In this document: positions 3,686 to 52,224 of the stretch, piece after piece
Layout of the letters: every line of letters begins with the position of its first letter
How positions within the stretch are numbered: the first letter of the stretch is position 1
Source of the DNA: an uncultured Planctomycetota bacterium
GTDB lineage: Bacteria > Planctomycetota > Planctomycetia > Isosphaerales > Isosphaeraceae
Direction of reading: 5' to 3'
NCBI GenBank assembly: GCA_963823665.1
Contig: CAWGMQ010000010.1
Span: forward strand, 480,001 to 544,000
Length of the DNA stretch: 64,000 bases
Notes under the pieces: generated by a model
Database searches by the model: none
The model's input: the letters and a program-made list of their open reading frames with translations, nothing else
What the model was told of the DNA's origin: nothing
Made by a program: the position numbers and the translations under genes

Positions 3686-5467
3686 ATGAGTGATCAAGTT
3701 GCGGCTGTGGGCGGAACGGATCATGAGGTTCCTTCGCTCCCCTTTGGCGGTCGACTCAACGCCGTCAAACACGGGCTCACGGCGAAGACTCGGGTTTTGC
3801 CGGGTGAGGACCCTGTTGCTCTTCAGGCTCTGATCGATGGGTTCAAGGCGAATGCTCAGGCGAAAAACTTGATCGAAGAGAGCTTGCTCGAGATGGCGGC
3901 GAGGTGTTTCTGGCGGGCCGGGCGTGCTGAACGGCTCGAAGCGAATCGGGGGACCATCGACATCGTGCGGCGAGCGGAGACCGATGCGGCTCGCGCGGCA
4001 CAGGAGGTCGCGGCGCTGGGGAGTCGCCTGTTCTTTGACCGCCGCGGGCCGTGGCAACTGTGGCCCTGGCGAGACTATTACTCCAATCCGCCACGGAAGT
4101 CGGCGGCGGGTGATGCCGAAGACCCAGATGGGCCGCGCAAGGTGGTTGATCAGCTTGAAGCGACCCGAGAGGGGGTGAATTGGCTGCTGCGCGAGTGGTA
4201 TGAGATCCGGAAACCGCTCGAGGCTGGAGGCGAGTGGCTGCCGTGCCAGAAATTCAAGGTCATCCGCTTGCTGGGAAAACAGCCGCTCGATGCCATTCAT
4301 GATGACGAGGTCGCCCTGGTATTCCTCGCCAACCACGCCATCGCGCCGGAATTCTTCTCCGCCTTCGACGAGCTCAGGTGCGAGATCGACGAGAACCGGC
4401 TCGAGCAGCACATGGCTCAGCTCGAGCGAGAAGAGCGGAAGGCCATCACACCCGCGGATGAGGAGGCGGGACGCGCAGCACTGCTGGCGATCGTGGATAA
4501 GGCCATCGAGCGGCTGTTGAGGCTCGGAGCCGAGCGCGGGGAGGTCGCCGATTTCCTCCGACAGCTTGAAAGTCAAACACCGAGCGACGCGGGGACGAAG
4601 GCGGTCGCTCCCGTTCAGCGGCATCTTGGAGATTGCAACCGGCTGATGCTAAGGAACATCGACGCTTTTCACCGGCTACGCCGGAATGAGGTCGAACGGT
4701 GGGGGATTATCCGGCAAGAGCGAGAGCAGAAGAGAGAGGAAGCACGACGCAAGCGAGAAATGGGGCCTGACCCGCGACTGATTGTGGATGCGCGCGGGAA
4801 GGTTCGTCAGGCCGAGGGCTACCGGTGGAAGCTTCAAGAAGGCCTGGCACGGTACGAAGCCGTGATTGGGCGGCAACCGTGCGAATTGGATGAGGGTTGG
4901 AGTGAGTCTCCCTGGAACGATGAGCGGGATCGGGAGGATCACGACGGTACGTCGACGCAGGCCGAGGCACAGTGCGCTCTTGGAGGCCAGCAGGGCGGGC
5001 TGCCGGGGGACGGCGGAACCGTGCCTGTGAGCAATCTGATGCGGGCAGATTATCAGTGTGAAGCGGCGGGTGTGGGGGTGATCGATTTCGTTCCCGTGCA
5101 GTTTACGGGGAAAGGAGATGCGGCGAATCTACAAAACGAGATTGTGGGCGACTTACCGATCGGTGGTGTGAAGGCCGGGCGACAGGAACGCGGCGAGACT
5201 CAACGCCAGAAGGACGTCTCCGGCGATGAACTACAGGCGTCTTTGCCTGAAGAGGGTTGCGATCGGCCGGCTCGTGTGGCGGAGCCGCTTTCCAAGCGGG
5301 AGAGACGGCGGCGGCAACGGGAAATGGCGAGGAACGAGTTTGAGCGGCGGCGCGGGGTGATGCCGAGTGAGCCCAATGTTTCAGTGGGCGAGATACTCGA
5401 CATCGCTCACGGATTGTTGCCGAACGCGGTTGCGTTTCGTCGGAAACACGGGCCGAGGTCGCCGTGA
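3686..5467 (+). CDS. Hypothetical 'NAVKHGL...LPGED' family protein, copy 1 (593 aa)
   Basis: Long uninterrupted ORF with collinear homology to 50095-52224. Confidence 0.85.
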   Translation: MSDQVAAVGGTDHEVPSLPFGGRLNAVKHGLTAKTRVLPGEDPVALQALIDGFKANAQAKNLIEESLLEMAARCFWRAGRAERLEANRGTIDIVRRAETDAARAAQEVAALGSRLFFDRRGPWQLWPWRDYYSNPPRKSAAGDAEDPDGPRKVVDQLEATREGVNWLLREWYEIRKPLEAGGEWLPCQKFKVIRLLGKQPLDAIHDDEVALVFLANHAIAPEFFSAFDELRCEIDENRLEQHMAQLEREERKAITPADEEAGRAALLAIVDKAIERLLRLGAERGEVADFLRQLESQTPSDAGTKAVAPVQRHLGDCNRLMLRNIDAFHRLRRNEVERWGIIRQEREQKREEARRKREMGPDPRLIVDARGKVRQAEGYRWKLQEGLARYEAVIGRQPCELDEGWSESPWNDERDREDHDGTSTQAEAQCALGGQQGGLPGDGGTVPVSNLMRADYQCEAAGVGVIDFVPVQFTGKGDAANLQNEIVGDLPIGGVKAGRQERGETQRQKDVSGDELQASLPEEGCDRPARVAEPLSKRERRRRQREMARNEFERRRGVMPSEPNVSVGEILDIAHGLLPNAVAFRRKHGPRSP

Positions 5468-5486
5468 TTCGTGCGAATCGTTGGCC

Positions 5487-5600
5487 CCTCATACGGTGCG
5501 CGGGAATGGTCGCTTGCCCGGGTCGGGGGGCGGAGCCCCTCCTACGGTGCGCGGGGATGGTCGCTTGCCCGGGTCGGGGGGCGGAGCCCCCTCCTACGGG
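5487..5600 (-). repeat. Two tandem ~51-bp units containing a GTAG-type REP-like motif
   Basis: CCTC(A/C)TACGGTGCGCGGG(A/G)ATGGTCGCTTGCCCGGGTCGGGGGGCGGAGCC occurs twice plus a partial copy. Revcomp reads GTAGGAGGGG(G)CTCCGCCCCCCGA. Confidence 0.8.
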
Positions 5601-5727
5601 TTGGGGCGAAAGGGACGCGCGGCGGCTCTCGCTGGTGCGCGGTGCTTCGAGCGGATCACTGGCGGGTGACGCCCTTCAGCCCGCCTGGCCCCCCCTTTTG
5701 GAAGGGGGGGAACAGGACCGGCGCCGG

Positions 5728-6308
5728 CTAACGGGTTGGCTGGTCCAGGAAGTTCTTGAGCAGCTTGATGCCTTCGAGCGTCAAGAAGCTCTCGGGGTGG
5801 TACTGAACGCCTTCGAGTGGATATCGCTTGTGACGCACACCCATGATTTCGTTCTGATCGGTCCAGGCGACGACTTCGAGGTCGCTCGGGCAGCGTGCCG
5901 GGCTCGATCACCAGGCTGTGGTATCGCGTCGCCTCGAAGGGATTGGCGATTCCACGATAGATTCCGCGGCCGTCGTGGTGGATCCACGAGGTCTTGCCGT
6001 GCATGATCCGGCCGGCCCGCACAACCTTCGCTCCCAGGGCGTGTCCGATGCATTGATGGCCCAGGCAGACGCCGAGCAGGGGGATCGTGGGGGCGAATCG
6101 CGTGACGACGTCGTTCGAGATTCCCGCCTCGACGCGGAGTGCACGGACCCGGAGAGATGATCAAGTGGCTGGGCGCGAGCCGCGCGATCTCTTCGACCGT
6201 GCACTGGTCGTTGCGCACGACTTTCAGGTCGACCGATGCGTCGATCTCGCCGAGCCGCTGCACGAGGTTGTAGGTGAACGAGTCGTAGTTGTCTACCAGA
6301 AGGATCAT
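5728..6308 (-). CDS. trpG: Anthranilate/aminodeoxychorismate synthase component II (glutamine amidotransferase), frameshifted
   Basis: [49 protein letters not shown], spread over three frames. trpG versus pabA cannot be separated. Confidence 0.85.
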
Positions 6309-6579
6309 ACGCAATCGCCCGGCGAGGCCGTGCAAACGGCAGAAGGGAGGAATCCGGACGAATCCTGGCTAACCATCTGGATCGTAACGTGCGGGCGATC
6401 CGACCGGAAGAGTACCCGTCGTGAATTGCGGATGTGCGGAGGGGCCGCGTGTTATCCTTGATCTTGGGACGCCCGGCGCCAGGCGGAGGCTCGGTCTGCC
6501 CGTGCGCCCGTTGGGAGCGATCACGGTTGCGAACTTCTGCCGGCCGTACGCCGGGGCCGGAAAAACAGGGAGGACCAGC

Positions 6580-7076
6580 ATGTCGAGCGCAATTGTCGCG
6601 ATGAGCCTGACGTTGGCGGCGAACGCCTTCGGCTTGGGCCACGATGATGCGGTGGTACAGCCCTCATGATCCCGAGCCGTACTTGCACATCCTGCCGGAC
6701 GGGCCGGGCGACGGTTGGGGGTTTCCCAACGGGCAGCCCGATGGCTACGGCTGGTTCGATCACGGCACCTTTCTGCCGTTAGGCGCCAACCGGATTCCGG
6801 ACTACTTTTTCCCGCGATATTTCGCGGCCGTGCCGGCGCAGATGTTTCCCCAGACCTATTACAACTGCTTTCGAGACACGCGGCCAGCGATACATACCCT
6901 ACGCCGGGGGCGGAGGCGAGCACCCGATGGGCGGACCGCCGCTGGCGTCGTCGCACCTACCTGTCTCCCCGTACACGGCGAACCCGGATAATGTTCCGCA
7001 GGTGGAGCTTCCCAAACTGAACGGTGTGATCGAGGCAGCACCGCTCTCCTCCGGCAGCTCGGGCTTGACGCCGTGA
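6580..7076 (+). CDS. Secreted Pro/Gly/Tyr-rich hypothetical protein, frameshifted
   Basis: GGAGG RBS and signal-like MSSAIVAMSLTLAANA. Continues PDGPGDGWGFPNG...YFFPRYF...RGQRYIPY in shifted frames. Confidence 0.6.
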
Positions 7077-7384
7077 TAACCGTTGAACGTGCAAAGACCC
7101 TGACGGGGAAGTTCGCCCTCCCGGGATCGATCAGAGCGCCAAGAGGCTCACCGGGAGGTTTGGACCCTCCCGGGTGCTTGTCAAAGTCAGGAGCGTCTTT
7201 TAGCATGGAAGAGAGTCATCACTGCTGCCGGACGTGCCTGAACTGATCGGTCGTTTCGGGCGAAATACCGATTGATGTGCGCAGCCTCCTGGAATCGGGC
7301 GAACATTCCGGGAGGCTCGTTCGTAGCAGACGCTAGAGCTTTCCGCGTTCATCGACTTTGTATTTCAACCGGAAGGTCTGCTTA

Positions 7385-8349
7385 ATGAGTTCGGAAGTCA
7401 TCATCGAGACGAGGAATCTCACCAAGGTCTATCGCGATTTCTGGGGTCGGCCCAAGGTTCAGGCCCTCAAGGCACTTGACCTTCAGGTGTATCGCGGCGA
7501 GATCTTCGGCCTGCTCGGGCCCAACGGCTCCGGGAAGACGACCACGATCAAGCTCTTGCTCGGGCTGCTGTTCGCGACCGAGGGCGAGGCGTTGATCTTC
7601 AATGAATCGACGACGAGCGTCGCCAAGAACGAGCGGATCGGCTACCTGCCAGAGGAGTCGTACCTTTACAAGTTCTTGAACGCCGAAGAGACCCTTCATT
7701 TCTATGGACGCTCTGTTCAAGATTTCTGGAGCGGAGCGGAAGAAGCGGGTCGGCCAGTTGATCGACATGGTGGGCCTCACCAGTGCGAAGCATCGCCAGC
7801 TTCGCGAGTATTCGAAGGGTATGCAGCGGCGCATCGGGCTGGCCCAGGCGCTGATCAACAACCCCGAGCTGATTCTGCTCGATGAGCCGACGTCGGGGCT
7901 CGATCCGATCGGAACTTCGGAAATCAAGCAGTTGATTCGCGACCTGCGCGAGCAGGGCAAGACGATCGTCCTTTCAGGGCACTTGCTTGCCGACATGCAG
8001 GATATTTGCGACCGGATTGCGATTCTTCATCGTGGCGAGTTGAAGGAGATTGGCCGCGTATCGGATCTGCTGACCGTTCAGGACGTGACGCAGATCAAGG
8101 TGCGCAATCTCTCGGCGGCGGCGATCGAGGAGATCCGGGACGTGATCCACCGGCATGGTGGAGTCGGACGTGCTGGTCGATCACCCCACGACGACGCTCG
8201 AGGAACTGTTCTTGCGAATCGTGCAAGAGAGCGAGCTTCACCCGGGACGGAGGAAGGTCGCGCACGACATGGCTCGTCCGGCTCCGCCGCGGCCGGGCGA
8301 ACTTGCCGGTGCTCGAGGAAATCCGGGGCGCAGGGACGATTACAGGTAG
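7385..8349 (+). CDS. ABC transporter ATP-binding protein, frameshifted
   Basis: Walker [10 protein letters not shown], signature [15 protein letters not shown], Walker [14 protein letters not shown]-terminal TLEELFL. Shifts near 7710 and 8160. Confidence 0.92.
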
Positions 8350-8598
8350 CGTGCCGGCAACCATCGAACGAGGGACAGGTGAGACACCTTCGGTCTGGCT
8401 AGCGGCCGCCCGAAAGCACCCCCTCCGGCCCCCCCTTCGAGAGGGGGAGCTTGGCGCAAGCTACAAGGTACGCGGTGAGAAATCAGGGTTGAGTCGATCA
8501 GGGTTGAGTCGATCGCAGGTTTTGAACGGCTCGGGCCTTGGCGGGGCCGTAAACTGCGAGTTGACCGGACAGACGTGACAAGCAACAAGAGGAACTGA

Positions 8599-11389
8599 AT
8601 GTCCGCGTTCTTGACTTCTTTGCCGATTTTGTGGGCCCAGGTGAATGCTGCGAGCAATCCTGCACCGAGGATGTCGCAGCGCGCGCTGGCCGCGATGACG
8701 TGGCTTTTCATAGCAAGTGATCCCAGCGTCGGCGTGCGGGATTCGGTGCTCGGTGGGATTCTGACGTGGATCAAGGCGATCAGCCTGATCTGCCTGGTGT
8801 GCTGGGTGGTTTCGTGGCTGATCGTGGGGATCAAGGAACGGATCATCGCGCAGGGTCGGTGGTTTGATTACCTGGGATTGGCGGCGGCGGTTCTGACGCC
8901 GGCCTCGGTGGCGCTCAAGGTGCTGGAGGATGCCGGGCGGGTTACGCGGTACAGGATTGGTGCGTATCCGCTGACCACGATCGCGGCGATTCTGTGCATT
9001 CTCTTATTCGCGGCGTGGGCCGAGATGGCGACGGTCCGGACGATTCGCCGGGTGGGCCGGCGACTCGGACTGGGTCGTGCACATTGCGCTGCACCTCGCC
9101 CTGGCGCTGGGTGTGGCGATCGGGTTCTACCTGTATCAGAGCGGGTTCTTGCTGGCGATGGTGCCGTTTGACCCGCAAACGAGGACGCGCCCCGTGCTGA
9201 ACTGGATCGACGGGCTGAATTTCGGGGTGCGATTCGGCGGGACGTACATGGGATTTGTGGTCTTGTTCCGGGTGGCGTGGGAGCTTGTGCGCGAGTTGTT
9301 CTTGATTCGAGGGCGGAGGCTGTATTCGATTGCGAGGCTGAGCATTTACGAGTCGAATCGGAAGATGTGGGCACCGTGGGTTGTGGGGGTGGTGTTTCTG
9401 CTGGTGCTTGCGTTCACGCACTGGTTTCTGGAGCCGCCGCGGCCGGCGGAGATGGGCCGGCTGTACGTGGGGACGCTGAGTCTCTTGTGTTCGATCTTGC
9501 TGACGGTGATGGTCACCATCATGACGCCGCTCTCGTTGCCGACGGACATCCAGCAGCAGACGATCTACACGGTGGTTTCGAAGCCGGTGCGGCGGATCGA
9601 GTTGATCTGGGGGCGGATGCTGGGTTACATGTTCATCGTCACGGTGCTGATGCTGGCGTTCGGGGGCATCAGCCTGTTCTATTTGCAGCGGACGGTCGGC
9701 GGCGAGCTGGCGAGCATCGAGCTAAAGGCCGAGAAGGCCAAGCCGTATGACCTGGTGCTCTTGCCACCGGTGAAAGACGTTGCCAGCCTGCCCCAGAGAG
9801 GGAACAAGCTGTTTGTGGTCGGGACTGTGGGAGATGAGCTCCACTTCCGCATTTTCGGCTTTGACGGCAAGATTGTCCTGGACACCGCCGAAAAGAAGCT
9901 GACGGAAAAGACCGAGCAGATCGAGAGTCTCAAGAAGGACCTGACCGCCTTATGGCCCCCGCACTCGCTCGCGACGACGGAGAAGAACTATCTGGTTTCC
10001 ACGGTCGCCTCGGTCGTCGGTTACTCGCTCAAGGATGTGAATATCAGCGATTACAAGCAGCTCATGGACCAGGCGGACCAGCTTCGCGTGCGGATGCAAG
10101 CGAGGGTTCCGATCAAGGGCTCGCTGTCGTTCCTCGACTCGCATGGGGTGCACAAGGCGGTGGGGATTGACGTGGGGGCGGAACAGCCGATGAAGGAGCC
10201 CAGGAGCCATATCGAGGGAGCGACTCCCTCGACGGCGATCTGGCGGTTTGGCCGCGAGGTGCCGGACCCGTTCGCTCCGCCGGGGCGTTTCATCCCGCTG
10301 GACCGGCAAATCCCGGTTCAAGATTTCATTTTGCCGGGCACGGTCGAGTGGGAGCTCGATCGGGTTTTCACGCTCGCCACGCAGATCGATGCCGCGCGTC
10401 GGGAGAAGGAACGACCGGGAGTGGCGACGGCCCGGGTGGCGCAGCTCGACGCGGCGATCAACCGGAATCAGCAGGAGCTGACCAGAGCGCGGAGCGATTA
10501 TGAGGCTCTGCTGAAACGAAGGGACGACCTGAGGGCGCATGCGGCCGAACTGGCGGCGAGCGGCAAGAACGGCGAGGCTGCTGCTGCCCGGAGGCAAGCG
10601 GCGGCGCTGTCGTCGCCTCCGATCAAGGTCGAGATGACATTCAACGTCTATCGCACGACAAAGGGGAAGATCGGCGAGCCGGTTTATGCGGAGATCGAGG
10701 CGATCAATCCGATGACCCAGCGAAAGTTTGAAGGCGACGTCTTCCCGATCAAGGAATACTACACGAATTCGGTGACGCTGCCGGCGTCGATTCTCGCGGG
10801 CTCGGACGGGTGGCTTAACGTGCAGATTCGCTGCCTGACGAATTCACAGTATCTCGGGATGGGAGAAAGCGACCTGTATCTGCTGTCGTCGTCCGGGAAC
10901 TTCGGCTTCAATTACATGAAGGGTCTATTCGGTGTGTGGCTGCAAGCGATGGTGCTGACGGCCATCGGGGTCTTCGCTGGTACGTTCCTGAGCTGGCCGG
11001 TGGCCCTGCTGACGACGATCTTCTTCTTTGTCGCGGGGCAGCTCGCGTTTGCTTTCCTCGTGGACATCTCGAGGCAGGCTGTGCTGGGTGGCGGGCCGTT
11101 CGAGTCGCTGATCCGGATTATTTCGCACGATAATCAAATGAGCGAGCTGACGCCGACCGGGGCGGTGGTGCTCGCCAAGACGCTCGATTCGCTGGCGATG
11201 CCGGTGATGTCGAGGGTGGTTTACCTCGTTCCGAATTTCCAGGCGCTGGACGTCAGCAACCTTGTGGCCGACGGGTTCATGGTGAGCTGGCGGGTGATGA
11301 TCTCCAATCTTCTGTTGGCGGTGGGCTACGCCCTGCCGTTTTCGTTCGCCGGTTACCTCATCTTGAAGAACCGGGAGGTCGCAGCATGA
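8599..11389 (+). CDS. ABC-2-type transporter permease with large extracytoplasmic region, frameshift near 9065
   Basis: Multiple TM segments, LPTDIQQQTIYTVVSKPVRRIELIWGR motif, C-terminal LKNREVAA. Follows the ATPase gene. Confidence 0.85.
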
Positions 11390-12939
11390 ACGCTTCGAGC
11401 AATTTCAATCGCAAGCTGATCTATGGAATGATCATCGTGGGCATATTCGCCCTGATGTTTCCGTACACGGGCTGGCTGGCCGAGGAAAAGAAGCGGCGCG
11501 ACCTGGGGGAGGCGGCGATCGGGCAGATCGATACCGGGAGCTTCATGATGAAGCTGTTCCTGCTGGGCGGATTCCGCGGGATCGTCGCCGACATCCTCTG
11601 GCTGCGTGCCGAGGAGCAAAAGAAAGATCACGATTGGGACCGGCTCAAGACCACGGTGGAGCTGATCACCAAGCTGCAGCCCCACTTCCTCTCGATCTGG
11701 ACATTTCAGGGGTGGAACCTGGCCTACAATGTGTCGGTCGAATGGGACGCGCCGGAGGATAAATACACGTGGATCAAGGGTGGGATCAAGTTCCTGGAGC
11801 AAGGCGTAGCCAAGAACCGGCGGTCGCCCGACTTGATCTGGGACACGGCCTGGACGTACTACCACAAGCTGGGCTTTTCCGACGAGTCGATCATTCTGCG
11901 CCGTCTCTTCTACGACGACGAAGACCTGCCGTTCAAGACGTTTGAGGACCCCAAGACGGGGCAGCCGGTGGAGTCGAAAGACAATTTCAAGCTGGGTTAC
12001 GGCTGGTTCGGGCGAGCGGTCAAGCTGGTCGATGAAGGTGCCGGTCGGATCTCGGGCGGCACCTCGAGCGAGATCCGTTATGTGGACGCGACGCCGCAGC
12101 GGAAGGGGCGCCCGGACGACATCGCGTTCCGGTCGATGCCCGCGCACGCTCAGACCCGTTATGCCTCGGGCCTGGAGAAGATGAGCATCTACGGCATCGA
12201 GGCGACGTTCGGGGAAGTTGCCAAAAATGAGTGGTTTCATGCGCTCGAGGAATGGAAGGAACTGGGCGATCACGTTTTTATATCGTTCAATGAAGAGTTG
12301 CGCGACGGCAAGATGGTGCGGGACAAGGTCAAGCTGAATGACGTGGTCGACCCCGAGCGACTGAAGGCCATGCCGAAAAACCAGGCGTACTGGACCAACC
12401 GCTGGTCGGATCAGATGAACTTCCGTTACTGGAGGCAGAGGTGTGAGGCGGAGGGGCATACCAAAGCTGTTCACGCGCGCCAGCTTTTCTACGAAGGGAC
12501 GAAAGCGTACAAGACCGGTGATTTCCCGGTCGCCGAAGAGAAGTTCAGAGACGGGCTCGCGGTCTGGAAGTCGCTGATGGATGATTTTCCCGTTTACGGC
12601 GACGATGAGTTGCTCAAGAGGGAAACCGGTCAGATCGTCAAGCGGTACCGCAAAGTGCTGCGGCAGAACCTGTCGCCGATCCCCGACGACCTGCCGTTCA
12701 AGGAGTACTTGAAGCTGGTCGAAGGCGACAACAATTTTGACCCGTTTGACACACTCGAGATGATTGGCCCGGTGGGTACGGAAAGTCCGATGGGGAAGCC
12801 CGGGGCTGCATCGCCGTCTGGCCCGACCCCGAAAGCTGAACTCGAAGAGCAGAAGAAAGCCAAGGCCAAGCCTGGGGTAGTAGCGCCGTCTGCCCCGACT
12901 GCGGTACCTCGCGCTGGCGAACCCGCCAAGAAGTCTTAG
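11386..12939 (+). CDS. Conserved membrane-anchored hypothetical protein of the ABC operon
   Basis: ATGA overlap with the permease. N-terminal TM, LLGGFRGIVADILW...WNLAYNVS motif, helical body. Confidence 0.8.
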   Translation: MNASSNFNRKLIYGMIIVGIFALMFPYTGWLAEEKKRRDLGEAAIGQIDTGSFMMKLFLLGGFRGIVADILWLRAEEQKKDHDWDRLKTTVELITKLQPHFLSIWTFQGWNLAYNVSVEWDAPEDKYTWIKGGIKFLEQGVAKNRRSPDLIWDTAWTYYHKLGFSDESIILRRLFYDDEDLPFKTFEDPKTGQPVESKDNFKLGYGWFGRAVKLVDEGAGRISGGTSSEIRYVDATPQRKGRPDDIAFRSMPAHAQTRYASGLEKMSIYGIEATFGEVAKNEWFHALEEWKELGDHVFISFNEELRDGKMVRDKVKLNDVVDPERLKAMPKNQAYWTNRWSDQMNFRYWRQRCEAEGHTKAVHARQLFYEGTKAYKTGDFPVAEEKFRDGLAVWKSLMDDFPVYGDDELLKRETGQIVKRYRKVLRQNLSPIPDDLPFKEYLKLVEGDNNFDPFDTLEMIGPVGTESPMGKPGAASPSGPTPKAELEEQKKAKAKPGVVAPSAPTAVPRAGEPAKKS

Positions 12940-13006
12940 TCAGTTGAGGGGTGTCTCCGCGAACCGGCTGTCAGTTGTTCGACCGGGGCTTCCGCCCGCC
13001 GATTCC

Positions 13007-13414
13007 TCACACGTCGTCTTCGCCCTCAGCGAGGCGTTGCTTGATGCCCATGATCCGCTCAACCGCGCGGACGAGTTTTTCCATGGCGAACGGCTTACGA
13101 ATGTAGTCGCGCACTCCGAGCATTTCGGCGTAAGCGCGATGGCGGCTTCCCTCGTTGCCGGTGATCATGATGGTGGGAATGAGCCCGGCGGGCCGGCTTC
13201 GGAGTTTTTCGAGCACCAGGAAGCCGCTCTTTTTGGGCATCATCATATCGAGAATGATCAAGTCGGGATTCTCGCGTTCGGCGATCATCAAACCGGCGTT
13301 GCCGTCGCGGGCGGCCAGAACTCGAAACCCCTTACTTTCCAGCACCATGCGCATCGATTCGAGGATTTCGTTATCGTCGTCGACGAGGAGGATCGTTCGT
13401 GAATGGGGGGGCAT
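13007..13414 (-). CDS. Single-domain response regulator
   Basis: ILLVDDD, PDLIILDMMMP, MITG, YIRKPF. Confidence 0.92.
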   Translation of the reverse strand: MPPHSRTILLVDDDNEILESMRMVLESKGFRVLAARDGNAGLMIAERENPDLIILDMMMPKKSGFLVLEKLRSRPAGLIPTIMITGNEGSRHRAYAEMLGVRDYIRKPFAMEKLVRAVERIMGIKQRLAEGEDDV

Positions 13415-13766
13415 GGCGAGGGCTCCCGTGAGCGGCTGTGCGGAGGGAAACGTGACCGAACCGGGGATCAATCATAAGCGTCATGAAAGGGCCGAACAAG
13501 GGGATCATCTGGAGTCTCGACTAGATATCATGATGCGTGGATTCTCGTGCGGGGTAAAACGTGGCCATTCGCAGGAACGGAAATCGGGACAAGGTGTCGG
13601 GGGCATCGATGAGAAATAAGGTGTGGACCCTCTTCCAACTGGCGGCCCCAGCGGTCATAATCAGGCATATCATCCACCCGATCGGGCTTGGCGTGGACAA
13701 AAACTCACGCAAGAGCGTCGAACTGGCTCGAGCGACAGACGGACACACCGGAAAGGAAAGGCGCCC

Positions 13767-14948: not shown

Positions 14949-15270
14949 TCGCCGTGTGGGTGCATGCGTGCTCGAACGTCGGCCAACTTTGCCAAGGCTC
15001 TGTAGATTTGACATCGGGGTCTTTGAAACTTTTTCACCCTCGGTTGAACTGAGTTCGGCAGAGGGTTTTTTATCCGAATTTTTATTCAAGTTTTCGCGGG
15101 CAAAATCCGGGTCGCGGTTTTTTTGGTGAATTGCTCAAGTTTTGGTCCGCGATGTGCTCCACACCGCGTGGGTGGTGAATCTGAGTTCGTCATCTGCGTG
15201 AGAGGACAGCGGATTCGGATCGCGCGACGTCATGTGCGCAAGATACGCAGGAACCAAGGAAGGAGCCTGT

Positions 15271-15600
15271 ATGCTTGGCGGTGCACCCTTTTCGAGTTGT
15301 GATATCTTTGAAGTTCTGGTCATGCTGTTTCAGGTGTGCGGCATCATGGGGCTTTGTCTTTCGCGGCTGATGCCTCGGTCAACGGCGTGGGCATCAAGAG
15401 GGCAGGCCGGCTCGATCGTGGCGTTGTTTGGGCTGGGAATCGCGGGGGCGTTTTGCGGGCGCCACGATTCGGAGTTCGCGCTGTTCGCCGGTGGGACGAT
15501 GACGGTTCTGCTGATCGGCATGACGATGGGGAGCGGATCGATCGAACGGGCCGAGCAGACAACGGCGTCTGTAGCGGCCGAGCCCGAACTCGCGACTTGA
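15271..15600 (+). CDS. Small membrane protein
   Basis: AAGGAG RBS and three hydrophobic segments. Confidence 0.65.
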   Translation: MLGGAPFSSCDIFEVLVMLFQVCGIMGLCLSRLMPRSTAWASRGQAGSIVALFGLGIAGAFCGRHDSEFALFAGGTMTVLLIGMTMGSGSIERAEQTTASVAAEPELAT

Positions 15601-40494: not shown

Positions 40495-40509
40495 TCGCCA
40501 GCTCAGCAA

Positions 40510-42633: not shown

Positions 42634-42805
42634 CGCCTCACCTCATCTCGCTAGCTCACGTTACAGTTCCGCTTCCGACCGCCCATCCCCCGCCCGCAGC
42701 CCCTTGCGCCGTCGAATCATCATATACACGATATAAGCGATCAACGCCCCAGCCAGCGGAAAGAAAATCAGCGGATTCTTGATAGACCAGTCGTTCATTC
42801 AGCAC

Positions 42806-43792
42806 CTACTTGACCAACCCCCGCTTGCGCAAATAATTAAGGATAAGCTTATCAAAAGGATACTGATTGCTCGTGAAGATATACGTGATCCCCCGCTGCG
42901 TGCACCACTCCTTGATCCCCCCCACAAACGCGTTCAAATTCTCCTTGTACCGTTTGATCAAGGGCGCGCTCACCGTAATCTCGGCAATCTCGTCGTCCTC
43001 GCAGTCGACCAGCCGCAGATCCCCTACCATCGTCGGGTCGATCTCCTCCTGCGATAGGACTTGAATCACGTAAATATCCATGTTCCTCGCCAGCAGGTAC
43101 CGCAGCGCATCCTGATACCCGCGTTTATCCAGAAAATCCGAGATCACCACCACCACCCCTTTGCCTGCATGCCGGATGGCGAACTCCCGGGCCGCCGTGG
43201 TCAAGTCGCTCGAGCCGGTCGCCTTCAACTGGTCCAGGTACTGGACCACCCGCCACATCTGCGACCGCCCGCGGATGCCATGCAGCCCCCGCTCCAGCCG
43301 CGCGCTGAACGTGTCGACCAGGATCCGGTCATGATTGCAAAGCCCGATGAACGCCAGCGCCGCGGCCACCTGCTTGCCATACCGCAGCTTCGTCGGCGTC
43401 CCGAAATCCATCGACAAGCTGGTATCCAGCACCGCGTAGACGTGCAGGTCCTCTTCTTCCAGAAAGAGCTTGAGAAACAACTTGTCCAGCCGCCCATAGA
43501 CATTCCAGTCGATGTGCCGCATGTCGTCGCCGACGGCGTAATTCCGATGCTCGGCAAACTCCACCGACGAGCCCCGCCGCTTGCTCTTCCGCTCACCCTT
43601 CATCCGCCCCACGAAGATCCGCTTGCTCACCAGCTCGAGCTGCTCCAGCTTGTGCAGGAACTCCGGCTCCAGCAGCGGTCCGGTCGAAGAAGTAGCAGGC
43701 GAGCTTGCCGCCGCCCCCTCCGCGGCCTCCGCGCCAAGAGCCTTGCCTGTCGCGCCCAGTTCGCTCACCGCCGTGGTTTCTGTTCCGCTCAT
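42806..43792 (-). CDS. DUF58 protein
   Basis: GSSVEFAEHRNYAVGDDMRHIDWN, DTSLSM, ISDF. Confidence 0.92.
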   Translation of the reverse strand: MSGTETTAVSELGATGKALGAEAAEGAAASSPATSSTGPLLEPEFLHKLEQLELVSKRIFVGRMKGERKSKRRGSSVEFAEHRNYAVGDDMRHIDWNVYGRLDKLFLKLFLEEEDLHVYAVLDTSLSMDFGTPTKLRYGKQVAAALAFIGLCNHDRILVDTFSARLERGLHGIRGRSQMWRVVQYLDQLKATGSSDLTTAAREFAIRHAGKGVVVVISDFLDKRGYQDALRYLLARNMDIYVIQVLSQEEIDPTMVGDLRLVDCEDDEIAEITVSAPLIKRYKENLNAFVGGIKEWCTQRGITYIFTSNQYPFDKLILNYLRKRGLVK

Positions 43793-43868
43793 TTCAGTCG
43801 GTTCCTCGGTCTGCCTCAAACACCCCGCGGGTGGGCTCTTGAAAACTCATGTGAAGAAAAGAAGAAAC

Positions 43869-44258
43869 TCACCCGTAATAGTCCGAAACCCAGAACAGCA
43901 TGAGCATCACGCTGACCGCCACGCCCAGCCCGACCAGCCACGGCACAATCGCCGCCAGGAAAATCAGCCAGCGCAGCTTGAGCTTCAGCGGCCGCGTCCG
44001 GTGCATGAAGCCCAGCGCCGTGAACCAGCTCTCGAGGATCACGAGCGAGCCTGCCGCCGCCGTGCAGATCGCCAGCTCCGGCTCGTTTCGCCAGGCCAGG
44101 AGCGAGCCGCCCAACAGCACCGCGCACAGCCCGATCAGACACGCCAGGTCGCCCGCCGTGAAGACCAGGCGCTCGGGTTTGGGAGGAACATAGTCCTCGG
44201 TTAGTGCCGGCGGCGGGTCATATCGGTCACGCATGGCTTTCCTGTTCCGAAGCATCAA
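43869..44258 (-). CDS. Small membrane protein in the MoxR operon
   Basis: Overlaps the MoxR stop codon. Three hydrophobic segments. Confidence 0.65.
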   Translation of the reverse strand: MMLRNRKAMRDRYDPPPALTEDYVPPKPERLVFTAGDLACLIGLCAVLLGGSLLAWRNEPELAICTAAAGSLVILESWFTALGFMHRTRPLKLKLRWLIFLAAIVPWLVGLGVAVSVMLMLFWVSDYYG

Positions 44259-45283
44259 GCCACCGCGCGCTCTTCGGCCTTCTCGGGCACCGAGTCCAGC
44301 ACCTTGAGCAAGACCTCGTCGGGGTCAATACCCTCCGCCTGCGCTTCGAAGTTGAGCAGCACCCGGTGCCGCAGGCTCGCCAGATAAACACGCCGCAGGT
44401 CCTCGAAGCTCACGTTGAACCGCGCGTCCAGGAGCGACCGCACCTTGGCCGCCAGCACCAGGGTCTGTGCCCCTCGCGGACTGCTCCCCCACCGGATGTA
44501 CTTGTTCGTGACGTCGGGCGCAAAAGGCCCGCGTGGGTGCGTCGCCAGCGCCAGCCGGATCGCATAGTCCTGCACGTGAGGCGCCACGATCACTTCCCGC
44601 ACCAGTGATTGCAGCGTGATGAGCGTCGGCCCGTCCAGCACCTTCTCGGCCCGCGGCTTCTCCCCGCGCGTCGTGCGGTCGATGATCGTCGAAAGCTCCT
44701 CCCGCGTCGAATAGCCCACCACCAGCTTGAGCAAGAACCGGTCGAGCTGCGCCTCGGGCAGCGGATAGGTCCCCTCTTGCTCGATCGGATTCTGCGTCGC
44801 CATCACAAAGAACGGCTCCTTGAGCCGGTGGATCTTGCCCCCCACCGTCACCGAGTGCTCCTGCATGGCCTCGAGCATCGCCGACTGCGTCTTCGGCGTG
44901 GCGCGATTGATTTCATCCGCCAGCACGATCTGCGAGAAAATAGGCCCGGCCTGAAACTCGAAAACACGGCGCCCGTCAGGCAGCTCCATCACGATGTTCG
45001 TGCCGATGATGTCCGCCGGCATGAGATCCGGCGTGAACTGGATGCGGTTGAAATCCAGGTCCACCGCCTCGGCCAGCGTCCGCACCAGCAGCGTCTTGCC
45101 CAGTCCGGGCACGCCTTCCAGGAGCGCATGACCGCCGATGAACAGGCAGGTAAGCACACCGTGGACGATCTCGTCGTGGCCGACGATCACCTTGCCGATC
45201 TCACCCTTGACGCGATCATACGCCGTGCGAAAACCCTCAGCGCGGGCTTCGATCGATTCCTCGGGAAACGTGCTCATGCTCAT
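44255..45283 (-). CDS. MoxR-family AAA+ ATPase
   Basis: GVPGLGKT, RIQFTPDLMPADI, LADEINRA, TQNPIEQEGTYPLPEAQLDRF. Confidence 0.95.
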   Translation of the reverse strand: MSMSTFPEESIEARAEGFRTAYDRVKGEIGKVIVGHDEIVHGVLTCLFIGGHALLEGVPGLGKTLLVRTLAEAVDLDFNRIQFTPDLMPADIIGTNIVMELPDGRRVFEFQAGPIFSQIVLADEINRATPKTQSAMLEAMQEHSVTVGGKIHRLKEPFFVMATQNPIEQEGTYPLPEAQLDRFLLKLVVGYSTREELSTIIDRTTRGEKPRAEKVLDGPTLITLQSLVREVIVAPHVQDYAIRLALATHPRGPFAPDVTNKYIRWGSSPRGAQTLVLAAKVRSLLDARFNVSFEDLRRVYLASLRHRVLLNFEAQAEGIDPDEVLLKVLDSVPEKAEERAVA

Positions 45284-48200
45284 TGGGGACTGTCCTTTCG
45301 TTGAGGTGATTCCGCGTCTTTCTCTTTCTCTCGTTCTTCCCAGACACGTTGTTTGGCCTTGAGCAGCCGGTTGGTGTAGCTCTCCTTCTGCGGCGCTGCC
45401 GGGCCCACACCCATCCCGGGGCGTTCCACGGGCGCCTGCGCAGCCACCATCGGGCTCGCCCCTTCCGCCCCTTCCAGGATCGGCTCGCCAATCGGGCCTT
45501 TCGGAGAGTCGGCCGGCACAATCTGCGGAGACGGCTCGAGCCTTGGTGCGTTCCTGGAGCGATCGAGCTGCTCGTCCACCTCCGCCTTGCGGCTGCGCAG
45601 CTTGTCCATGTAATCGCTCGTTGTCGCAACCTCCCGCCCGGTCATCTTCTGCCATTCCTTGGCCATCGCCGTCATGATCGCGCCCCAGTCGATCGCGATC
45701 CTGCGCACGGCCACGTCTCCCAGGAACAAGCACGCGGCCATCCACAACAGCGTCGGCCAGAGCGGCGCGAACGAGCGGGGGTTGATCAGCCCGGCGTCAC
45801 GGCGGAAGTGGTCGTTGTCCTGCACGGTGCGCACCAGGTCGACTCGCCCGTCCGGCGTCTGCTTCCAGCTCCCCACCTTGCCTTCGGTCACCGAAGCCAG
45901 CGTCTCGAGCGTCGTCGGGTTCGACCGCAGCTCCCGGTACTCGTCGGAATAAGGCACCGACACCCCGGATGAGATCACCCCCTGCACGTTGTCCGGGCCG
46001 CGGTAGCCCAGGCTGATGAAGTAGTTCCCGCTCGCCTCGGCGTTATCCATCGTGCCCTCGTACCGCCCCGGCGCGGTCTGCACCAGCTCGATCGGTCCGG
46101 ATTTCAAGTTGGGATCAACCGTGTTCCCTCGGATCTGCAGGAAATTGAGGAATTCGTTGTTCTTGTCGAGCGCATCGACCACCACCTTGATCCGGCCTTG
46201 GTCCCGGCGCACGTTGAGCGTCAAGTTGCCGCGGTCGGCCGGCCGCATCGACCACCGGATCACCTGCGACCAGAAAGCCGTGTACGTCTTCCAGTCCGGC
46301 CAGGTCTTGGCCCAGCGGCCGCCGGCGTCCGACGTGAAAGCCACCGATCGCCCCAGTCCGTACGACCAGTGCGCCAGCACCGGGTTCAACTGCCCGGTCG
46401 GCAGCGGTGAGACAATCGGGATCTCGACCAGCTCGTTCTCCTTGGCCGACGTCAGCACCAGCCCGTTGATCGGCGGGAACTCTTCGCCCAGACCCATTAT
46501 CGGCTCGGTGATCGGGTAGTTCACCTTGGGCAGCCACGGCGTCGCTTGCTCGAAGATCAGCGGCCGCGAGATCGACCGTGCTTCCTTCTGATAGATCCTC
46601 GGCAGCGCCTTGGGGTTCGTCACCACGTAGAACCGGCCCTTCGTCTTGTTGGCCAGGTTCCGCATCACCTGGGTCGCGCCCGGATCATTCCCGTGGGCCG
46701 CCGTCAGCACCGCCGTCACTGTGATCTTGCTCGCCGCAAGCTGATTGATCACCCGCGTCGAAGGCGGCGTGGGGTCGCCATCGCTGATCACGACGATGTG
46801 TTTGCTCATCGCATCCTGCACCCCGTTGAGTCCCTTCATGGCCATCTGCAGCGAGGGGTCGAAATCGGGCATGTCCCCCGGCGTCATCCGGTCAATCGCC
46901 CGCAGCATGCTGGCGCGTCCCGTGCCGACTGGCCGCAGCGTGAACAGCCACGCTTCCTGGTTCTCCCAGTGCAACAGCCCCGCATAGTCGTAGCTCGAAA
47001 GCGCGCCGATCGCCGCCTTGGCAACCACCGCCTGCCAGTAGTTCCCTTCCGGAATCTCGCTCGCGTGCATGATCAGCGCCATCGCCCCGATGCCCTGCAC
47101 CTTGATCGCCTTGATCTGCATGTCCACCGGCAACGCCTTCTCCACCGGCGTGTTCATCCAGCCCCCCGCGCCGAAGCTGTCCGGCCCGCCGATCATCACC
47201 AGGCCGGCCCCCATGTCGTGGCAGTTCGCCGCCAGCAGCGCGTGCTGGCTCTCCGTGAACGCTTCCTTGGGAACATTCGCCAGGATCACGCTGTCATAAG
47301 GTTGAAGCTGCGCCAGGTCCGCCGGCAGCGGATCGCCGCCGACTCCCCCCGAGCCGTCGATCTTGGGCGCGCACAGCACTTTGACTTCGATCTCTTTCTC
47401 ACGCAGTGCTTTCACGAGCGTCTCATGCTCGTTGCGACTTCCCTCGATCAAGAGCACTTGCGCCTTCCCCCGCGCGTGCGTGAACCCCTCGGCGATGTTG
47501 TTGATCGCCCGCTTGTCGCCGCTGCCGGCGTCCGGTATGAACTCGGCCGAGAACGTATAAAAGTTCGGTTCCGTGATGAGCTGTCTCAGCGTGAACACCT
47601 TGACCCCGCGCTCGAGTTCGATGTGCTCCGGCTGCTCGTGGCCGGCCGCCGGCGCGCGACGGTCGTCCGATTTCTGGTAGATCTGCAGCGTGCCCGATGT
47701 CGGCTCCGCGGCGCGGATGACGACGTTGATATTCACCGTCTCGCCCTTCTTCACGTCGGGCGGGATCGACACCTTCTCGACCAGCACTTCGCTGTCATAG
47801 GAGTACTCGAGGGGCAGCACGTCGACCTCGACCCCCAGCGTCTTGGCGGTGAGTCCCTGCTCGAACAGGTTCCCGCGGTTCTCATTTCCGTCGGAGAGGA
47901 CGACGATTCGCCGCGCCGTGTCCTCCGGAAAGCTCGCCAGTGCCAGCTTCACCGCGGCGCCCAAGTCGGTGTTCTCGTGATCCACCGTGCTCTCATAACC
48001 GATCAGCGAAAGCTCCGACGGCGCCGGTGGCACTTCAACCCTCGGCTCCTTGCCGAAGACGACCAGCCCGGTGAGGTCGTCCTTCCACCGCTTCTTCGAA
48101 GCCTCGGTGATGTAGTTGAGCGCCAGCTTCTGCTGGTCCGCGGGCACGCTGTTCGAGACGTCGAGCAGGAAGATCGTGGCCAGCCGGTCCGACTTCCACA

Positions 48201-48426
48201 CCGTCTGTAGCTCGGCAAGCGCGAGAATCACCAGCGTGATCACCGCGGCGCGGAACGTGATCGCCAGCCCCCGCCGCACCGGGCCCAGCCCCGCCAGGCT
48301 GCGATAGCTCCACCAGACCAGGGGGGGCAACACGAGCGGGATCAGGATCAGGAACCACGGGTTGCCGGTCGAGAACGACCAGTTGCCCTGTAACATCGTC
48401 ATATCACTCCGTGGCGATCTCGTCAT
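45280..48426 (-). CDS. vWA plus glutamine-amidotransferase-like membrane protein
   Basis: LLDVSNS, LSDGNEN, GGPDSFGAGGW, LPVDM, ISDGD, GLGRSVAFTSD. Confidence 0.9.
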   Translation of the reverse strand: MTRSPRSDMTMLQGNWSFSTGNPWFLILIPLVLPPLVWWSYRSLAGLGPVRRGLAITFRAAVITLVILALAELQTVWKSDRLATIFLLDVSNSVPADQQKLALNYITEASKKRWKDDLTGLVVFGKEPRVEVPPAPSELSLIGYESTVDHENTDLGAAVKLALASFPEDTARRIVVLSDGNENRGNLFEQGLTAKTLGVEVDVLPLEYSYDSEVLVEKVSIPPDVKKGETVNINVVIRAAEPTSGTLQIYQKSDDRRAPAAGHEQPEHIELERGVKVFTLRQLITEPNFYTFSAEFIPDAGSGDKRAINNIAEGFTHARGKAQVLLIEGSRNEHETLVKALREKEIEVKVLCAPKIDGSGGVGGDPLPADLAQLQPYDSVILANVPKEAFTESQHALLAANCHDMGAGLVMIGGPDSFGAGGWMNTPVEKALPVDMQIKAIKVQGIGAMALIMHASEIPEGNYWQAVVAKAAIGALSSYDYAGLLHWENQEAWLFTLRPVGTGRASMLRAIDRMTPGDMPDFDPSLQMAMKGLNGVQDAMSKHIVVISDGDPTPPSTRVINQLAASKITVTAVLTAAHGNDPGATQVMRNLANKTKGRFYVVTNPKALPRIYQKEARSISRPLIFEQATPWLPKVNYPITEPIMGLGEEFPPINGLVLTSAKENELVEIPIVSPLPTGQLNPVLAHWSYGLGRSVAFTSDAGGRWAKTWPDWKTYTAFWSQVIRWSMRPADRGNLTLNVRRDQGRIKVVVDALDKNNEFLNFLQIRGNTVDPNLKSGPIELVQTAPGRYEGTMDNAEASGNYFISLGYRGPDNVQGVISSGVSVPYSDEYRELRSNPTTLETLASVTEGKVGSWKQTPDGRVDLVRTVQDNDHFRRDAGLINPRSFAPLWPTLLWMAACLFLGDVAVRRIAIDWGAIMTAMAKEWQKMTGREVATTSDYMDKLRSRKAEVDEQLDRSRNAPRLEPSPQIVPADSPKGPIGEPILEGAEGASPMVAAQAPVERPGMGVGPAAPQKESYTNRLLKAKQRVWEEREKEKDAESPQRKDSPQ

Positions 48427-48499
48427 CGACCATCAAACGGGGGTCGAAACGATCGGCCCCGGTTGCTACCTCGAGCGCTGCACGCCTCTCACATCATTT

Positions 48500-48526
48500 C
48501 ATTGTCGCCTTTCGCTCCGCGAAAGG
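48500..48526 (-). repeat. REP-like palindrome (intact copy of the IS target)
   Basis: Revcomp CCTTTCGCGGAGCGAAAGGCGACAATG, with a CCTTTCGC/GCGAAAGG stem. Confidence 0.75.
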
Positions 48527-48565
48527 AGCGTCCCCCCGTCACGAGCCTCTCTCAAAAGGCAGCCC

Positions 48566-49499
48566 TCACATCCGAAATCGTTGAACGCGATGATTGTTGG
48601 AATCGACGACCGACACATTTCCCTGGCTGTCAACCGCGAGAGCGTAGGGATTGAAGAGCTGCCCGGGCCCTCTCCCGGCGCTCCCCCACGTTCCCAGCGA
48701 TTTGCCCTCCAGGTCAAACTTCTGCACCCGGTGATTGCCGTACTCGCACACATATAGACAGTGGTCCGGGCCGATCGCCAGGTCGAAAGGATAACTCATC
48801 TGCCCCGGCGCGTCCCCGCGACCCCCATGAATTGAGCAGTTTTCCATTGGTGTCGAACACCTGGATCCGGTGATTGCAGCTATCGGCAACGAACAGCCGG
48901 TCCCGTTCGTCGATCGCCAGCGCCCGCGGCTTCAAGAACTCACCGGGCTCATACCCGTGGCCTCCCCACTGCCTCAGCCACTTCCCCTCCGGCGAGAAAA
49001 CCTGGATTCGATCGTTCTCACCGTATTCAGCGACCAGGAAATTCCCCGCGCTGTCAATGACGACGTCGGTCGGATACCCGAATCGCCCCGGAGTCGTTCC
49101 CTGCACGCCGTCGCCGATCTCGAAGAGGATCTTTCCCTCCGGCGAATAGATCAGCACACGATAGAAATGCGTGTCGGCCACCAGCAGCCGTCCCAGCCGA
49201 TCGACCGTCAGCCCACTCGGCCCGTCCACGTTGAATTCCGGAGTCGACCACCCGCGAATGTACTTCCCGTCCCGGTCAAACACCTGGATGCGGTCCGTCA
49301 GGTCCGCCAGATAAAGATGGTCCTTCGAATCAAACGCCGCCGTCCGCGGTTTGTGCAGCCGCCCGGGCTTGATGCCGTGAACCCCCCAGACCAGCTCCGG
49401 CGCCGACCCGCCCGGCAGATCGCATCCTGCCACGACGAAGAGCAAAACCACCAGCCCGGCAAGCTTCAGGGAGACTCTGGCACGCTCTCGCTTCCGCAT
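48566..49499 (-). CDS. NHL-repeat lipoprotein, frameshift near 48815
   Basis: VAGC lipobox and repeats such as DRIQVFDRDGK and NHRIQVFDTNGK. Confidence 0.88.
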
Positions 49500-49646
49500 G
49501 GGCGTTCAACCTGTTGACGTGACGTGGTGCGTATCCGCGACTTTGGAGCGGCAAACCCTTCAGGTAGAATCTACTGGCTCGGGTGCCTCGGACGCAAGTC
49601 CTAGGCTGTTCGTTTTCGGTGTCCGCGGTCGTGAGGATGCATTGCA

Positions 49647-49952
49647 ATGCCGGAGTGGAAGGCTGTCTGCCGTCTCGAGCAAGTCGCCGAAGGGCGGGGC
49701 TGTTCCCTCGACGCAGGCGGCGTGAGGCTGGCTGTGTTCCGTCAGGGAGACGAGTTGATTGCTCTCTCCGGCCGCTGTCCCCACTCCGGCGGCTCGCTCG
49801 GCCACGGCTGGATCGAGTCCGGCGAAGTCGTCTGCCCCTTGCACCACTGGCGGTTTCGCTTGACCGACGGCCGCTGCACGACAATCCGCGGCGAGTCCGT
49901 GCACAAGTTCCGCTGCGAGGCCCGCGACGACATGGTGTGGGTCGAGGTCTGA
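49647..49952 (+). CDS. Rieske [2Fe-2S] ferredoxin
   Basis: CPHSGGSL...CPLHHWRF. Confidence 0.88.
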   Translation: MPEWKAVCRLEQVAEGRGCSLDAGGVRLAVFRQGDELIALSGRCPHSGGSLGHGWIESGEVVCPLHHWRFRLTDGRCTTIRGESVHKFRCEARDDMVWVEV

Positions 49953-50094
49953 GCCGTGCCGGACCGACAGCCGAGTTCAACGTGAATGAATGAAGGAGCG
50001 GAGTTTTCCCAGCGCAAATGTTGCGCCACCTCGAAATTTGCCAATACGACTTGCTTCCCATCAGTCCCGGCTCGCGGCCCTCCAAACAAACACC

Positions 50095-52224
50095 TCACGG
50101 CGACCGCGGCCCGTGTTTCCGAAGAAATGCGACCGAGTTCGGCAAGATCCGCTGAACGCTGTCGAGTTTCGCGTCCACGGAAACGCCAGGTTCATTAGGT
50201 ATCACACCGCGCCGGCGCTCAAATTCTCGCCTCGCCATGTCTCGCCGCAGCCGCCGTCTCTCCCGCTTGGAAAGCGGCTCCGCCACCCGAGGCGCCACAA
50301 CACAACGCTCTTCGCCCAAGGACGCCGGAAGCTCGTCACCGCCGACGTCCTCCTGGCAGCCTAGCTCGCCCCCTTCGTGCCGCCAGGCCGCTAAAGCTTC
50401 GATCGGCGCGTCGCCCGCAGCCTCACTTGGTTCGTCGCCCACGATTTCGTTTTGTATTTTCGTCGCGGCCTCTTGTCCTGTAAGGGTTAAGGGAACGAAT
50501 TCGCTCGGCCCAGTTTGCGCCGAATCCATCGCTCCATCCCGGATTTCCCCCCGACCGGAGGTCTCCTCCTGCCGCCCGCCGTCCCCGAGTTCAATTCCCC
50601 CCGGCTGAATTGCACCCAAATCGTCCCCGCCAACCACGCGATCACCCGTCCCACCATCGACCCCATCGTCTCTCAACCTCGACCCGTCGATCTCGTTTTG
50701 TATATTCGTCGCGGGCTCTTGTCCCGTAAGGGTTAAGGGAACGAAATCGCTCGGACGGGCCTGCCCGAAATTCGTGGCCCCATCCCCGTTTTCCGCCCCG
50801 TCCACGGCGTCCTGATTCACCGCACCGTCAGCCGACACCCCATCCGCCCGATTGGTTCCCGGCGCTCCCTGAGCGTCACCACTCCTCGAAGCCGTCTCAC
50901 ACGCCCGACCGGCAATCGCTTCTGTATGTCCCTGGCTCTGCACGTGCGCAGCCTTCGCGCCCACATCACTCGGGCTGCCACCTGCGTAGCGCGCACCACC
51001 ACCGTCAGACGCACGCCAAGACGGACTCTCACAAGGCTGCGGCCCGCGCTCCGCCTTCCAGCGAGCCAAGCCTGCATCGAGGTCGCCGTCATACCCCTGG
51101 GCATCGCGCACGGTCCCATGCTCGTCAAGCACAAACCGTTCATCGACCATAATCCCGCGTTGTGCTGCTTCTTTCAGTCGTAGTCGTTCCCGCCGGGCCT
51201 TTCCCCAGCCTTCCTCGTCCCAGCGGTGCCATCTCTTGATCGTGTCGAGGTTCCGAATCACCAGCCGGTTGGAGCTCTCAAGATGACGCTCAATCTGCCC
51301 GACGTTCTTGACCTCCGCATCGCTCACAGTATTGGTTTCGACCATCTCGAGAATCTCGTCGCCTTCCGCGGCCTCGGCTTCGAGCCTCCACAGCCGCTCA
51401 ATCGCCTGGTCGATGATCTCCAGCAGCACGGCCCGTCCAGCCGCTGCATTCGCCGGCGTGAGCGCGCGTAGCTCCGGGCGCGAGAGCTGGCCCTCATAAA
51501 ACTTGACCCGGTCATAGTGGATCTCGCACCGTAGCTCGCGGAAGGCGGACTTGAAGACCGGCCTCATGGCATGGCTCGCAAGGAACACCAAGGCGGCCTC
51601 TCGATCAAAGAGCGCGTCGAGCGGCTGCTTGCCCAGTAAACGGGCGGCCGTGAGTTTTTGACAGGAGACCCATCCCTCTCCCGAATCAATCGGCTTCCTC
51701 ACCTCGCCTAGGCGGTCCAGCAGCCAGCGTCGGCCGGCGCGCGTCGCTTCAAGCTGGATGACCAACCTGCGCGGCTTATCCGGGTCATCGGCTACCCCCG
51801 AATCGGAGGTCCGCGGCTGCTTGTGCTCATAGTCCCCCGATGGATAGAGCTGCGATGGTCCCCTGCGGTCAAAGAGCAAGCGGTCGCCCAGCCCCTCTGC
51901 CGCCAGTGTCTCCTCAGCCGCCTGCGCCCGCGATCGCCGCACGATATCGCCGGTCACGCGGTTAACTTCCAAGCGGTTAGCACGCTCGGCCCGCCAGCAA
52001 GCCATCGCTGCCAGCTTGGCCAGATCTGCCTCGGCTTGATTTCGAACCTGATGACTCGTTGTGTACGCATCAATCTTCGCCTGAAGCTCCGCCGGATCCT
52101 CCCCCGGCAGAACCGGCGTCTTCGCCGTGAGCCCATGCTTGACCGCGTTGAACCGCGACCCCTTGCCGATCGACGCCCGCTGATCATTCATTCCGACCAT
52201 CGCCGAACCCTGCTGCACGCTCAT
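50095..52224 (-). CDS. Hypothetical 'NAVKHGL...LPGED' family protein, copy 2 (~709 aa)
   Basis: Paralog of 3686-5467. Start chosen from the matching leader ATGGTGA(T/G)GCGATGAG. Confidence 0.85.
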   Translation of the reverse strand: MSVQQGSAMVGMNDQRASIGKGSRFNAVKHGLTAKTPVLPGEDPAELQAKIDAYTTSHQVRNQAEADLAKLAAMACWRAERANRLEVNRVTGDIVRRSRAQAAEETLAAEGLGDRLLFDRRGPSQLYPSGDYEHKQPRTSDSGVADDPDKPRRLVIQLEATRAGRRWLLDRLGEVRKPIDSGEGWVSCQKLTAARLLGKQPLDALFDREAALVFLASHAMRPVFKSAFRELRCEIHYDRVKFYEGQLSRPELRALTPANAAAGRAVLLEIIDQAIERLWRLEAEAAEGDEILEMVETNTVSDAEVKNVGQIERHLESSNRLVIRNLDTIKRWHRWDEEGWGKARRERLRLKEAAQRGIMVDERFVLDEHGTVRDAQGYDGDLDAGLARWKAERGPQPCESPSWRASDGGGARYAGGSPSDVGAKAAHVQSQGHTEAIAGRACETASRSGDAQGAPGTNRADGVSADGAVNQDAVDGAENGDGATNFGQARPSDFVPLTLTGQEPATNIQNEIDGSRLRDDGVDGGTGDRVVGGDDLGAIQPGGIELGDGGRQEETSGRGEIRDGAMDSAQTGPSEFVPLTLTGQEAATKIQNEIVGDEPSEAAGDAPIEALAAWRHEGGELGCQEDVGGDELPASLGEERCVVAPRVAEPLSKRERRRLRRDMARREFERRRGVIPNEPGVSVDAKLDSVQRILPNSVAFLRKHGPRSP

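Follow-up and report, generated by a model that had tools for sequence, protein, structure and literature searches.

A box-marked gene family of Isosphaeraceae chromosomes suggests a form of self-spreading DNA not described before

Introduction

In pac phages, the pac site lies within the gene for the small terminase (TerS), and dispersed paralogs of the tuf and rrn type undergo concerted evolution by gene conversion. Here we describe a gene family found in a 64,000-nucleotide stretch of DNA (the window) from an uncultured planctomycete of the Isosphaeraceae. Each unit comprises a promoter, a helical core of ~340 aa and a shuffled tail that holds a DNA box. As with the small terminase of HK97 (gp1, PDB 8pop; PMC11331095), the protein is predicted to have a small helical hairpin core, flexible N- and C-terminal segments and head-to-tail oligomers. 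The short cognate DNA site is 15 bp long in HK97 (PMC11331095); its candidate counterpart in the family is a 12-bp box. Unlike TerS, the family gives no significant sequence or structure match and has no adjacent TerL, portal or capsid genes. It is present in tens of chromosomal copies, carries a ~200-aa helical insertion in its Isosphaeraceae form and was not found in phages.

The family resembles concerted evolution in its ragged conversion tracts and in copies that are closer within a genome than at the same site across genomes. It differs in exchange across subfamilies lacking core DNA similarity, gene-less landing sites with the same box, and a hundred-fold range in copy number. With REP/REPIN-RAYT systems and MITEs (PMC3733652, PMC6006769), the family shares an autonomous-looking gene accompanied by many gene-less intergenic repeat modules; however, it has no HUH/Y1 domain, and its box is a direct-repeat, non-hairpin motif in its own tail. 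A redirected terminase, as in PICI/SaPI TerS, lateral transduction and the GTA small terminase (PMC8575950, PMC6854486), would explain one-sided, oriented transfer. In contrast to such packaging hijackers, the unit is a single gene without integrase, replication or capsid-modifying genes.

Results and Discussion

Copy A (593 aa, subfamily A; ORF and BLASTP) occupies 3686..5467 on the plus strand and copy B (709 aa, ATG at 52224) occupies 50095..52224 on the minus strand, with trpG and a Rieske gene as neighbours. An initial annotation had presented them as inward-pointing paralogs with collinear blocks. Both reading frames are real, the genes face each other, and the proteins are 43% identical over 557 columns (BLASTP, E 5e-127), with 56% over 147 in the C-terminal block. 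The shared leader proposed at the same time is also real, a stretch of ~35 nt that takes in the ribosome-binding site and the start (3650..3692, plus strand, in copy A; just upstream of 52224 in copy B), but A and B do not align further upstream. Of the supposed conserved untranslated flanks only this short leader held, as 3' similarity stops at the stop codon. The all-helical core of copy A spans 3743..4720 (+), its fold taken from homolog L056. Its tail contains one box module (5090..5140, +; GTTCCC... imperfect palindrome ...ACAAAACGA), and the tail of copy B contains two (50692..50742 and 50446..50496, both −).

Upstream of copy A lies a zone of REP-like and tandem repeats (2417..3261). 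Also in the repeat-rich stretch upstream of copy A is an unrelated DDE insertion sequence (733..2416, −; DUF772 and DDE_Tnp_1 by Pfam), presumably IS1182-like. This element recurs at 87–99.9% identity within 3 kb upstream of five of the 49 family copies in the genome (copy A and loci L034, L046, L069, L039) and also at L132 of the congener G001, which suggests that it favours the family's repeat zones. Separately, ~4.5 kb upstream of copy B (52600–57000) is missing from the matching G001 site. Labelled by eye, its genes are oxidoreductase-like and CocE-like, and the CocE-like gene of G001 is on a different contig.

The two window genes proved to be 2 of 49 loci in the 16.5-Mb genome (G000), condensed from 52 tblastn matches. 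The core was uninterrupted in 36 of these; sequencing errors may account for some of the interruptions. A profile search returned 62 matches in G000, 52 in G001 and, in 17 of the 18 other genomes examined from this bacterial family, 1–106 each. None of 12 genomes from other families of the class matched. Close homologs were labelled Isosphaeraceae; the profile reached 35,929 representatives (clusters at 50% identity), and a single-protein scan found loci in Acidobacteriota, other Planctomycetota, Verrucomicrobiota and one Rhodospirillaceae genome. No Pfam or NCBIfam family matched the window proteins at E<=1, the best PHROGs matches were at E>=0.18, PDB gave no significant match to the family, and no description was found in the literature searched.

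Several members stand apart. Two planctomycete plasmids carry family genes (L167 on NZ_CP011274; NZ_CP019083), one of them upstream of parA and a replication gene. Contigs C7 and C8 of G000 (L279, L280) both end within subfamily-B tails that are 97.7% identical, so the breaks in the assembly hide additional copies. In G003, six of the seven near-identical genes (L087–L093) lose frame at about the same core position; a slippage site or a sequencing error in a homopolymer may be responsible. Bacterial family f33 of the phylum has exactly one copy in 6/6 genomes, with the same adjoining gene cluster in 4/6. This ~200-aa form (L269–L274) lacks the STGP arm, in 4/6 lies immediately 5' of a cluster for fatty-acid synthesis (annotated by eye) and is possibly domesticated.

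Most members begin with S-x-x-NA-x-KSTGP-x-T-x-x-G...N-A-x-KHG. The STGP arm is lost in the window's subfamily; copy A retains NAVKHG. An STGP-T-EG...NA-KHG arm is presumably also shared with HGGxSTG-domain proteins, from which the family differs by lacking the preceding C-x-x-HGG part and by having no NCBIfam match. The minimal form (~130–140 aa) consists of the arm, two helices, a short linker and a third helix; in the Isosphaeraceae form, ~200 aa are inserted into the helical hairpin. An AlphaFold model of L056 (136 rows; pLDDT 86, pTM 0.76) was all-helical with no beta strands, and neither a recognisable catalytic fold nor a nuclease match was found in it. The annotated absence of DDE, tyrosine-recombinase, HUH and RT motifs was upheld by empty Pfam and NCBIfam searches. 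Core dN/dS was 0.20–0.47 in 20 of 21 pairs and 0 in the remaining pair (0.31 for copy A against its twin L031); by this measure the core is under purifying selection. Tails are low-complexity, shuffled and 100–1000 aa long, and some G001 genes join an A-type core to a B-type terminus.

Established classes were considered in turn. For insertion sequences (DDE, HUH, serine/tyrosine, IS110), there was no transposase or recombinase domain in Pfam or NCBIfam, the model was all-helical, fixed ends, terminal repeats and target duplications were absent from the pairs compared, and the gene-less sites read were not clean joins. For retroelements, there was no RT match, and several tracts include the promoter and upstream DNA as far as -803. 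For RAYTs, the HUH Y1 domain was lacking in both Pfam search and model. On the features tested, the family belongs to none of these classes, nor to the small terminases.

The initial annotation had not recorded the conserved tail box, AAACGAA(C/G)CCAA (12 bp, one to six copies per tail). The tail peptides NEPN, NEAN, QTKPI and QNEI are differing reads of this single DNA word, as are LASF and GFVS in acidobacterial tails. With strict patterns, 72 of 87 loci had box matches in their tails, 163 in all on the same strand and 0 on the opposite one; an exact 13-mer occurred 37 times in G000 (control, 0). Homologs were sampled at 46 loci, one per genome, from 72, picked via N-terminal words independently of the tail and leaving out the 8 top near-identical matches. 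The top-ranked de novo 9-mers in their tails were fragments of the box word. Boxes (<=2 mismatches) were present, in either orientation, in any frame and in three phyla, in 35 of 44 homolog tails, whereas the flank windows had them in 4/41, 5/36 and 5/42. The box is likely the protein's own candidate binding site.

In subfamily A, the box is embedded in a ~52-bp module that has sharp boundaries and contains an imperfect palindrome, CCTT-N7-AAGG; the pattern of this module matched 123 times in G000 (5 for controls). At least 62 module clusters had no gene within 4 kb (62 of 72 among the 100 matches listed). Twenty such sites were inspected; all were mosaics of modules, promoter-like pieces and palindromes, and none contained a core. 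Box arrays with regular spacings of ~63–65, 75, 95–97 and 126–134 bp, and a gene-less array at 200–290 bp, also occur (G012: C62, C64, C89, C11; L264); some spacings are close to whole helical turns.

An alternative is that REP/RAYT-type or insertion-sequence machinery carries the gene along passively within repeat-rich zones, the box being just another repeat module. REP-like palindromes flank copies and occur in tails, the same insertion sequence recurs upstream of some loci, and the mosaic gene-less sites would fit. We consider this improbable: the box accompanies the gene in three phyla despite differing flanking repeats, it is strand-locked to the gene in the 87 loci, and several tract ends fall in the gene or leader rather than in palindromes. 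Less probable again is that the ~52-bp module serves for site-specific recombination, a tyrosine recombinase in trans integrating circular cassettes there and the family protein being an accessory or directionality factor. The sharp module with its palindrome, the reassortment of left and right flank classes around it, and the frequent breaks of gene-less-site alignments at module edges all agree with such a site. However, a dif/att-like test found the palindrome confined to the subfamily-A module, with a variable 7-bp spacer; 35 homologs of other lineages lack it and show no TAA/TTA enrichment beside the box (3.4 vs 5.3 per kb), and the upstream box needed for a flanked cassette occurs in only 3 of 87 loci.

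Twin copies were 94–99% identical over tracts of 0.9–3.5 kb (16 usable of 17 pairs). Copy A is 95% alike with L031 (contig C8) across 3262..4960 (+), comprising upstream region, core and tail start. Copy B and L038 are 98.9% identical in the core and only ~80% alike in the tail. Tract ends were unique to each pair (5' from -803 to +377, 3' from +1099 to +3314), several lying inside the gene or leader, away from palindromes; the twin pairs showed neither a shared terminus nor inverted repeats or target duplications. The suggestion of a mobile family survives in that the genes are dispersed, still multiplying and fit no known family, but not as an element with defined ends. That the protein itself is a transposase of new chemistry is very improbable and largely refuted by the ragged tracts. 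Many recent dispersed copies and sites that are gene-less in relatives would suit it, whereas the pairs lack common ends, the fold is all-helical with no nuclease match, and the small number of invariant residues (N, G, P, E, W, R) resembles no known catalytic set.

Sites were compared between the 49 G000 loci and 38 G001 loci from among the matches listed. The immediate downstream flank was common to both genomes, in the same orientation, at 21 of the 49, against a chance expectation of ~0.6 on an assumed 3,000 gaps; upstream flanks, if shared, were mostly shifted by 1–4 kb. Only 4 of the 21 shared sites held mutual best hits (2 were one-way and 5 had no core DNA alignment), indicating that old sites have been refilled. 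In seven twin pairs both partners occupy sites shared by G000 and G001, so recent copying has reached old sites. Beside the same Rieske gene, G001 carries a gene just 70% like copy B and 99.5–99.8% like its own G001 paralogs, with the older ...YLPRSP-stop end remaining in another frame; no gene is present at this site in G008 or G012. The core is absent from the copy A site in all four relatives (G001, G008, G012, G015) and from seven G001 regions corresponding to six further G000 loci. The site of copy A thus has no core gene in these relatives, whereas the copy B site carries a different copy in the congener. The gene-less sites were not clean: all five that were read, including copy A's, were filled with repeats and box modules oriented as the G000 gene (two by eye). 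In this comparison of two genomes, such sites are either decayed copies or unfilled landing sites.

As judged from these alignments, units are recopied within genomes as ragged tracts of 1.2–3.5 kb, new copies replace the resident family member at long-lived, oriented, box-marked sites, and cores and tails are exchanged between subfamilies. We regard this descriptive half of our explanation as highly probable. The main rival, which we consider unlikely, is a host-beneficial diversifying family whose fixed copies are reshuffled by ordinary RecA gene conversion via repeats shared in tails and upstream. Its protein might, for instance, act as a decoy and poison phage packaging, or regulate genes by binding DNA, the box being autoregulatory. 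Such a family would account for purifying selection on the core, ragged tracts that begin and end in homologous sequence, the single conserved copy in f33 and the mutual best hits at 4 of 21 shared sites. Inter-subfamily exchange without core DNA similarity (5 of 21) is hard to obtain without a driver, however, and a copy number of 0 to 106 in one bacterial family, a patchy presence across the phylum (9 of 121 genomes match) and at least 62 gene-less box sites also speak against it.

A terminase is a possible driver. A minimal homolog was predicted to self-associate head-to-tail with two-face contacts (0.55; best control 0.00). Of 30 solved pairs, 20 attain this mark, as does 1 of 23 single chains; it describes pairwise contacts rather than a closed ring. 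TerS profiles gave no significant match (best phrog_9231, E 0.004, 1/9; NF040601, E 0.036, 1/27), and hhalign against the HK97 small terminase returned a probability of 0.1. No TerL lies directly downstream of the window copies; strong G000 TerL genes occur elsewhere, paired with another TerS. The likeness to small terminases is weak.

Two-gene cassettes that pair a 131-aa HTH small terminase (phrog_2538, E 7e-9) with a 470-aa large terminase (phrog_2, E 2e-24) were observed at L162 (G000:C2, ~82.7 kb), L278 (G000:C4, ~164 kb) and L161 (G001:C1); neither capsid nor portal genes could be recognised within 19 kb. In one case, the cassette lies between the same host genes in G000 and G001. A lone HTH small terminase (L061:4275-4664, −; phrog_2538, E 8e-7) is found just downstream of a family copy, with a remnant at the matching G001 site.

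We tentatively favour, at somewhat less than an even chance, a self-spreading gene-plus-box cassette moved by recombinational exchange, with terminase cutting or packaging as a possible driver. A helical, probably ring-forming DNA-binding protein would be made from each unit and bind the tail box. As a distant small-terminase-like ring, it would recruit a nuclease or packaging motor in trans, from orphan TerS-TerL pairs of the genus or from passing phages. The DNA end so produced, or the packaged fragment, would then recombine with a further box or tail repeat and, on its upstream side, be joined through shared repeats, bringing promoter and core into the new site. The terminase-driven half is, if anything, slightly more tentative than the whole. 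The broader proposal, of widespread one-gene selfish elements in which an orphan small-terminase-like ring recognises a conserved box within its own gene, hijacks terminase cutting or packaging and so homes into box-marked sites, is doubtful; if true, these elements would remodel soil-bacterial chromosomes and possibly mobilise flanking host DNA.

Conclusion

A family of 35,929 clusters without a library entry, common in Planctomycetota and Acidobacteriota, thus gains a candidate DNA site, a fold modelled with confidence and a defined way of spreading. Its function is therefore directly testable through binding of the 12-bp box, ring formation and terminase recruitment. The findings point to an undescribed kind of self-spreading DNA, and the family protein may be a distant relative of the DNA-recognising part of the phage packaging machine. 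If the units move without a transposase of their own by refilling marked sites, they would represent a kind of mobile DNA invisible to tools that find insertion sequences, and would help to explain the repeat-rich, rearranging intergenic zones of very large soil genomes.
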